DNA from: Escherichia coli
GTDB taxonomy: Bacteria; Pseudomonadota; Gammaproteobacteria; Enterobacterales; Enterobacteriaceae
Assembly: GCF_003334335.1 (NCBI RefSeq)
Contig: NZ_QOWQ01000079.1
Strand: one strand, 5' to 3'
Length of the DNA: 4,361 bases
Positions 4,195 to 4,231 of the stretch are shown piece by piece (position 1 is the stretch's first letter; each line of letters opens with the position of its first letter). The notes beneath the pieces were generated by a model that had not been told where the DNA came from, did not search any database, and was given only the letters and a program-made list of their open reading frames with translations. Both the position numbers and the translations under genes were made by a program.

Positions 4195-4231
4195 AAAAAA
4201 AACCGCCAGCGGCAGGAACGGAAGCTGGCGG
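4195..4231 (-). terminator. Hairpin with adjacent A8 immediately after the esterase stop; oriented as an intrinsic terminator for leftward transcription
   Basis: A8 (4195-4202) followed by perfect 8-bp stem CCGCCAGC/GCTGGCGG (4203-4210 / 4224-4231) with a 13-nt loop. There is no T-tract on the + strand side. Confidence 0.45.

Follow-up and report, generated by a model that had tools for sequence, protein, structure and literature searches.

A hairpin after a prophage nanS-p gene is probably the terminator of a minus-strand gene for an Esr41-like sRNA

The interval between nanS-p and the DUF1378 gene

The window, by which we mean the whole stretch of 4,361 nucleotides of Escherichia coli DNA that was analysed, ends at the junction between a nanS-p-like esterase gene and the first gene of a lysis-proximal block. 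The features of this junction, including those predicted in the sections below, are as follows.

2207..4189, + strand: nanS-p-like gene for a SASA-family sialate O-acetylesterase (660 aa; TAA at 4187-4189; from the ORF list)
4195..4202, − strand: U8 tail of the terminator (A8 on the + strand; read from the sequence)
4203..4231, − strand: terminator hairpin (5′ arm 4231->4224, CCGCCAGC; loop 4223->4211; 3′ arm 4210->4203, GCUGGCGG)
4243..4250, − strand: single-stranded core UUCUCCAU, anti-Shine-Dalgarno, the presumed seed (alignment and minimum-energy fold)
4195..4275, − strand: predicted Esr41-like sRNA, ~77-81 nt, with its 3′ end in the U-tract (Rfam, family covariance model and Esr41 alignment)
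4281..4287, − strand: weak A-rich −10, read as TTAAAA (17-nt spacer) or TAAAAA (18-nt spacer), lacking the terminal T
4305..4310, − strand: −35 hexamer TTGACA, perfect consensus (sequence reading and alignment with Esr41)
4329..4361, + strand: start of a DUF1378 family gene, first of the lysis-proximal block, running off the window (RefSeq/GenBank, identical DNA)

At the homologous locus RefSeq labels the nanS-p-like ORF 'SASA family carbohydrate esterase', and the protein is 96% identical to those copies. The short + strand ORF that the preliminary description had seen leaving the right edge is indeed a gene, of the DUF1378 family in RefSeq, but its ATG occupies 4329-4331 and does not begin at 4330 as had been thought. 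That description had also pointed to the genes farther downstream as informative, and a lookup at the identical locus supplied them: DUF1378, DUF826, holin and DUF1327 genes, all on the + strand, and then a lysozyme gene. Late + strand transcription of the DUF1378, DUF826, holin and lysozyme genes must go past the hairpin, where the preliminary description, too, had considered that Q-modified late transcription might continue.

The left part of the window carries several other elements. Judging by how the homologous prophage in strain STEC17-183 is annotated, the ORF at 7-945 (+) corresponds to the C-terminal portion of a DNA methyltransferase gene whose start lies beyond the left edge of the window. 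Three tRNA genes, the usual trio of Stx phages, follow on the + strand at 986-1235; the first is called tRNA-Met (CAT) by ARAGORN and tRNA-Ile (ileZ, with a lysidine-modified CAT anticodon) by RefSeq, and the second and third are tRNA-Arg genes (TCG and TCT). Two tandem STnc100 copies lie on the + strand at 1369-1577 and 1773-1985 (Rfam 122 and 147 bits; gathering score 47), each ending in a + strand terminator (1540-1567 and 1955-1974). The STnc100 family has been linked to PasD (2026 preprint, bioRxiv 10.64898/2026.05.13.724894), and both of these STnc100/PasD-type copies are upstream of nanS-p. A − strand unit at 1986-2206, with its terminator at 2013->1992, converges on the second STnc100 copy; it is 93% identical to positions 1179937-1180157 of prophage Sp4 in the Sakai genome (NC_002695.2), a stretch that includes two Hfq sites, EcOnc08 and EcOnc21 (Tree 2014; ~271 nt on a Northern blot). 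Because of this unit on the left and the predicted Esr41-like sRNA on the right, nanS-p would be flanked on both sides by − strand sRNA genes.

Direct reading of the nanS-p 3′ flank bears out the preliminary description, in which the stop codon was followed by A8 and a perfect 8-bp GC-rich hairpin with no T-run on the + strand side. Between the TAA and A8 lie 5 nt (CCGGC, 4190-4194), and the hairpin begins 13 nt past the stop codon. Its stem consists of eight perfect pairs, seven G-C and one A-T, with the + strand arms CCGCCAGC (4203-4210) and GCTGGCGG (4224-4231) enclosing a 13-nt loop (4211-4223). On the − strand the hairpin leads without a gap into T8, giving the stem and U-tract of at least six that characterize an intrinsic terminator. 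On the + strand the sequence past the stem reads AGGTAATCCCAATG / AGGTAATCCC and contains no T-run, so the terminator is not bidirectional. The site shares with the canonical E. coli intrinsic terminator a perfect, G+C-rich stem followed directly by U8 (on the − strand) and differs from it in the loop, which at 13 nt is long compared to the usual 3-8 nt; Esr41 and PasC, the sRNAs considered below, have loops of 10-15 nt at the corresponding place.

Under a strict definition of a terminator (perfect 8-bp stem, at least six G-C pairs, loop of 3-15 nt, at least seven T within 2 nt), the hairpin flanking nanS-p was the one site in the window, and no site was found in 1000 dinucleotide shuffles. 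A permissive scan also placed a site here on the − strand only, as a 5-bp alternative with a 3-nt loop (4215->4203) followed by the T-run, and found no + strand site at the hairpin; a loose match of this kind means little, because loose sites are common in shuffles too (9 in the whole window versus 4.5 ± 2.6 in shuffles). The earlier proposal of a leftward terminator thus stands with respect to orientation, given the U8 on the − strand and the lack of a + strand terminator. Its other element, an unspecified transcript converging on nanS-p from the right, is not supported in that form, in view of the predicted dedicated promoter and the Esr41 homology presented next.

Homology with Esr41

Esr41 (EcOnc14) is an Hfq-dependent sRNA of the E. 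coli O157 island SpLE1 that represses cirA, chuA and bfr by acting at their ribosome-binding sites, as established with compensatory mutations (Waters et al., PMC5286369). In the literature it is viewed as EHEC-specific and confined to this one island, with roles in iron uptake, colicin resistance, motility and LEE expression. Among Rfam families, Esr41 (RF02676) was the best match over the hairpin site, covering the full model length on the − strand (4269..4195) with 23 bits (E=0.36 for the whole window, E=0.021 for a 262-nt region), a score that the E-value-thresholded search reports although it is far below the gathering score of 102 bits. The alignment pairs ACAUU-CUCCAU, the CCUCCGCC(A/G)GC arm, the GCUGGCG arm and the U-tail with their Esr41 counterparts. 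The other sub-threshold matches at the site, PrrF, RybB, Ref84 and NsiR1, aligned with the terminator only and were set aside.

The genuine Esr41 gene was located beside iha in the O157 strain EC4115 and used for alignments. Aligning the window and the genuine Esr41 with the copy carried by the Sakai Stx2 prophage Sp5 revealed a common promoter block (TTGACAA..AACT.TTTT.A.T), a common core (TTCTCCAT), and a common 3′ part consisting of GG.AT..CC.CCGCC.GC (CCGCC(A/G)GC) and then GCTGGCG and T7-8. The local alignment of the window with Esr41 scored 35, versus 17.6 ± 2.4 for 2000 shuffles of the window (z = 7.3), none of which reached 35. In the reciprocal direction, a covariance model was built from 21 prophage variants with Esr41 left out and used for an unfiltered search over 50 kb; it gave 110 bits for the window (4275..4195), 99 bits for the Sp5 copy and, as the next match, 24.5 bits for the genuine Esr41 (E ~6e-4 in 50 kb, E-values of this search being rough). 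The flanks of Esr41 are unrelated to those of the window, and so the shared promoter is not a side effect of the DUF1378 leader.

As judged from these alignments, the predicted RNA is a diverged homologue of Esr41, with which it shares promoter architecture, core and terminator arms. The likeness extends from the promoter block through the core UUCUCCAU, followed by GG.AUU.CC.CCGCC, to the arms CCGCC(A/G)GC / GCUGGCG and U7-8, and the lengths are similar (74 nt for Esr41, ~80 nt here). The differences lie in the 5′ third, where the Esr41 stem-loop GAUGCU/GGCAUC is replaced by a U-rich stretch in which the 3′ arm GCAUC alone is recognisable, in the terminator loop (10 nt in Esr41, 13 nt here), and in the −10, which is weaker here than in Esr41. 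The genomic homes also differ, Esr41 residing in SpLE1 (OI-43/48) beside iha and the window sRNA in a lambdoid late region, from nanS-p to DUF1378. Because it is below the Rfam threshold and has neither the 5′ hairpin nor the genomic home of Esr41, we file the window RNA as an Esr41 paralogue or variant and not as Esr41 itself.

The AT-rich region 4232-4329 had been suggested as a place for a promoter, a suggestion that held up: it has 32.7% G+C, versus 52.5% for the whole window, and contains TTGACA on the − strand at 4310->4305. This −35 hexamer precedes the predicted start by ~35 nt and the end of the U-tract by ~115 nt, and the −10 region at 4281..4287 aligns with TTATAT/TATATA of Esr41. 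A promoter scan of the window did not call this predicted − strand promoter (4310->4305 / 4281..4287) because the scan demands a T at position 6 of the −10. The +1 G of Esr41 aligns to position 4275, and from this homology and the placement of the −10 we infer a 5′ end at ~4272-4276. Two mechanical ORFs, one on the − strand at 3880..4314 (144 aa) and one on the + strand at 4143..4316, were rejected as genes because both cross the terminator and the end of nanS-p, the latter being unconserved between alleles.

Conservation of the RNA was assessed in a model-guided alignment, which comprised 33 distinct members with Esr41 among them. The core UUCUCCAU is invariant in all of them (33/33) and unpaired in the minimum-energy fold, which together with the U8 tail gives this RNA the sequence features of an Hfq-dependent trans-acting sRNA; the T-run is 6-9 long in every family member. 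For the eight stem pairs, 99.2% of the alignment cells show pairing. The loop-closing pair is C-G in 29 sequences, U-A in 2 and U.G in 2; Esr41 has one G.U and one sequence has a mismatch. One pair thus underwent a compensatory double change (C-G to U-A), a count that 118 of 500 shuffles also reach, and covariation gives genuine but thin support, given how closely the copies are related. The terminator was the only conserved structure retained by RNAalifold. A conserved 5′ stem-loop was considered as well and rejected, since the variants allow differing weak helices and RNAalifold discards them all.

The promoter and the core bear on the question of whether the hairpin might be a generic − strand terminator, placed against antisense read-through from the right-hand genes into nanS-p with no dedicated sRNA involved. 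Its orientation would fit such a function, and in an identical prophage a small − strand gene does lie ~1.4 kb to the right, between the holin/DUF1327 and lysozyme genes. However, the four annotated genes directly to the right (DUF1378, DUF826, holin, DUF1327) are all on the + strand, the perfect −35 with its Esr41-type spacer stands at a distance from the U-tract end (~115 nt) like that in PasC (113 nt), and the invariant core between promoter and terminator would be left unexplained. We give a generic terminator hardly any credence.

By its sequence, the U8 tail (4195..4202, −) is likely a binding site for the proximal face of Hfq, and by analogy the hairpin and U-tail together probably serve as an Hfq-binding 3′ module as well as a terminator. 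In the cirA leader, duplex prediction has Esr41 pairing with UACCUCAUGGAGA over 13 contiguous positions, whereas the window RNA forms 7, a 7-bp UCUCCAU/AUGGAGA helix at the same ribosome-binding site that Esr41 uses; the overall prediction for the window RNA and cirA is −27.9 kcal/mol, and 1.3% of shuffles do as well. The bfr leader was rejected as a predicted target, its pairing with the window RNA being no better than that of shuffled sequences. Since the 7-bp core of the cirA interaction is kept and the bfr pairing is no better than chance, the modelling suggests a target overlap with Esr41 that is plausible and may be partial. That the window RNA acts on Esr41-like targets is a tentative proposal, to which we assign somewhat less than even chances.

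Distribution and linkage to esterase alleles

A BLAST survey found the 145-nt unit in 976 of 5426 complete E. coli genomes (~18%), at 2221 places in total; a single genome has as many as 7, and 10 of the places are on plasmids. At nearly all places the match begins with query base 10, where the A-run has its first A, and in nearly every genome match listed a DUF1378 gene lies under its right side. In viral contigs, two pattern scans yielded 48 distinct 175-nt stretches, which when trimmed to promoter-through-terminator gave 41 sequences and 32 distinct sRNA sequences. The first pattern (core and stem with a variable gap) returned mostly chance matches, 11 of 120 fetched loci being real members; the second, with a promoter of fixed length, worked and biases the sample towards intact promoters, so the case for promoter conservation rests mainly on the BLAST survey and Esr41. 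A scan of genome contigs with an AT-rich 18-base promoter pattern gave at least 120 matches; those listed were chance matches from unrelated phyla, and none of the listed loci carries the family. The intergenic unit is 99-100% identical to that of phage PhiR12_1 and strain STEC17-183, where NanS-p is only ~96% identical.

The unit is tightly linked to the 3′ end of an esterase gene and at the same time indifferent to the allele of that gene. Of 109 occurrences, taken from viral contigs and from genome and phage loci, 108 have their T-run 1-6 nt away from the stop codon of a long ORF that converges on it, and all 98 convergent ORFs of at least 100 codons in the fetched flanks match the NanS-p of the window, with identities of 41-96% (median 57%). 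The sRNA unit, 84-100% identical, is thus joined to very different esterase alleles, and by the sequence comparison the mosaic joint is the end of the U-tract. Such joining to NanS-p alleles of 41-96% identity speaks for the hairpin being part of the right-hand module and not of nanS-p.

This linkage weighs on a + strand role for the hairpin, which the preliminary description had offered as its alternative: a 3′ stabilising stem-loop or processing barrier that would shield the nanS-p message from 3′ exonucleases during antiterminated transcription. The hairpin does fold in the + strand RNA too (−17.3 kcal/mol, with −19.1 kcal/mol for the 86-nt − strand RNA; the whole-sequence folding z-scores, −1.8 and −1.1, respectively, are modest), it follows the stop codon by 13 nt, and it abuts the esterase stop in every allele examined. 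On the other hand, conservation runs ~80 nt past the hairpin into a promoter and core homologous to the separately located Esr41, and the A8/T8 tract has no role in a stabiliser. The homology block moreover starts at the A-run and is common to NanS-p alleles that are 41-58% identical, and because of this the hairpin is not co-inherited with the esterase. As originally stated, then, the stabiliser is not supported, and we consider it quite improbable as the explanation of the hairpin. The two roles are not mutually exclusive, and the hairpin might conceivably act secondarily as a 3′ hairpin on the nanS-p message. We conclude that the hairpin and the A8/T8 tract are probably the Rho-independent terminator of a − strand gene for an Esr41-like sRNA, which fills the spacer between nanS-p and DUF1378.

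Relation to other prophage sRNAs and proposed working

The arrangement has a counterpart in PasA and PasC of enteropathogenic E. coli, whose genes follow an esterase gene and precede the next one in the order '> < >' (NC_011601.1 743499->743415, −, and 1290909->1290832, −; Pearl Mizrahi et al., PMC8550237, table S6). Both were confirmed as sRNAs by Northern blots, their RNA-seq levels drop in an hfq deletion under activating conditions, and their Hfq-mediated interactions were recovered by RIL-seq (PMC8550237). In EPEC E2348/69 their neighbours are a SASA esterase gene and lysis genes, and the U-tract of PasC ends 2 nt from the esterase stop. Their Sakai homologues are EcOnc51/52; EcOnc52 (1181998-1182075, −), an Hfq-crosslinked site in Sakai (Tree et al.), overlaps the end of the Sp4 esterase gene. 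The window sRNA resembles PasA/PasC and EcOnc51/52 in its slot between esterase and lysis genes, its opposite strand, and its terminator abutting the esterase stop. As in PasA/PasC, the −35 TTGACA is ~113-116 nt from the end of the U-tract (113 nt in PasC, ~115 nt here), and the Pas type and the window sRNA have the terminator arms GCCAGC..GCUGGC in common; PasC and the Sp5-type copy also share GCCAGCGUCC and CGCUGGC. In contrast, the RNA bodies and seeds of PasA/PasC are unrelated in sequence to the window sRNA, and their right-hand neighbour is the holin gene directly, compared to DUF1378 here. PasA/PasC were accordingly rejected as sequence homologues: their local alignments, which involve the 3′ terminator arm only, were reached by 49 and 10 of 1000 shuffles, and the family model gave them E = 0.16-0.73.

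A broader likeness is to the AgvB / AsxR / EcOnc03 class. Tree et al. (2014) described sRNA genes that occupy moron sites downstream of PR′ in lambdoid prophages and converge with late transcription; they form families in which the 3′ part, with the terminator, is conserved and the 5′ part, with the seed, varies. The members of this class differ from the window sRNA in that they sit between Q/stx and nanS-p, consist of other sequences and act as sponges; no sequence similarity of the window sRNA to this class was detected. The element type as such is already known. Convergent prophage sRNAs at moron sites have been described, and Zhu, Shabalina and Storz (bioRxiv 10.64898/2026.05.13.724894) both described the esterase-PasA/PasC-holin arrangement and noted in passing that matches to the Esr41 covariance model are frequent near PasD. 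The advance made here is therefore incremental, and a hairpin-terminated sRNA gene is a fairly ordinary feature of Shiga-toxin-type prophages.

In the Sakai Stx2a prophage Sp5, the Esr41-like copy (the 99-bit match to the family model) is on the − strand at NC_002695.2 1272086-1272168, between the IS629-disrupted nanS-p remnant ECs_5706 and ECs_1210, and O157 Sakai carries, besides Esr41, one or more prophage paralogues with an identical core. None of the 63 orphan Hfq sites (EcOnc entries) of Tree et al. covers the Sp5 copy, an absence that says little because intergenic peaks no more than 100 bp from a coding region were filtered out in their screen. Taken with the weak −10 and the loss of the Esr41 5′ stem-loop, the missing EcOnc entry could nevertheless be read as a sign that an Esr41/Pas-type sRNA gene has decayed or fallen silent here, its terminator still in place and its promoter too weak to yield meaningful amounts of RNA. 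Against this stand the 2221 copies in which promoter, core and stem are intact across variants of 77-100% identity, including the compensatory change in the stem, and the example of PasA/PasC, whose −10 is equally poor (TCAGAA after a 17-nt spacer) and which are abundant RNAs all the same. A silent relic is in our judgement very improbable.

For the active sRNA gene that we favour, we propose the following working. Transcription would start near 4274 on the − strand, from the perfect −35 and the weak A-rich −10, proceed leftward for ~80 nt and stop in the U-tract, 5 nt short of the nanS-p stop codon. In the lysogen, where late + strand transcription ends at tR′ far upstream according to established lambdoid biology, the sRNA would by analogy be made, and its U8 tail and terminator would bind Hfq, which Esr41 and EcOnc52 are documented to bind. 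The anti-Shine-Dalgarno core would then pair with ribosome-binding sites of host mRNAs, as that of Esr41 does on cirA, chuA and bfr. On the + strand the same hairpin, lacking a U-tract, would let Q-modified late transcription pass to the lysis genes.

Lambdoid and Stx-type prophages apparently carry a diverged Esr41 paralogue with an identical seed core, many of the genomes having several copies, and regulation of the Esr41 type may be far more widespread and more variable in dosage than has been assumed. The phenotypes of esr41 deletions may be partly masked in strains with prophage copies, and sequencing reads that fall in the conserved 3′ half may be credited to the wrong copy. For annotation, the rule would be that the hairpin after nanS-p is assigned to the − strand sRNA gene and not to nanS-p. 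This use in annotation, together with the wide occurrence of Esr41-type seeds on lambdoid prophages, is where we see the chief value of the finding.

A more speculative joint reading, which we consider possible but rather doubtful, is that the junction between nanS-p and the lysis genes is a fixed slot for sRNA cassettes, that the Esr41 of SpLE1 is a copy that escaped from it, and that the late mRNA titrates the sRNA. Bodies of the PasA, PasC and Esr41 types may have been recombined at the U-tract joint by the esterase stop. Likewise, the late mRNA that appears upon induction may titrate the sRNA or be cleaved with it, either being possible because the sRNA is fully complementary to the intergenic region of the late transcript. 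Were the joint reading true, host regulation, e.g. of iron uptake, would be coupled to the switch from lysogeny to lysis.

Two further observations concern related loci. In prophage PP2 of EPEC E2348/69, two tandem Pas-type units follow the esterase gene (locus L002, 2768-2846 and 2916-3000, both on the − strand); the unit nearer to the esterase gene, with a TTGACA-like box and a terminator of its own, explains the 'minor' 236-nt PasA species that was published with an end at 743264. A terminator is also found upstream of the holin gene (CCGUCAGUG..ACUGGCGGCUUUUUU; L002 3134-3163, +; L003 3045-3074, +; L006 9427-9456, −), with arms that resemble those of the sRNA terminator in the opposite orientation, and it may be another edge of a recombination-prone module.
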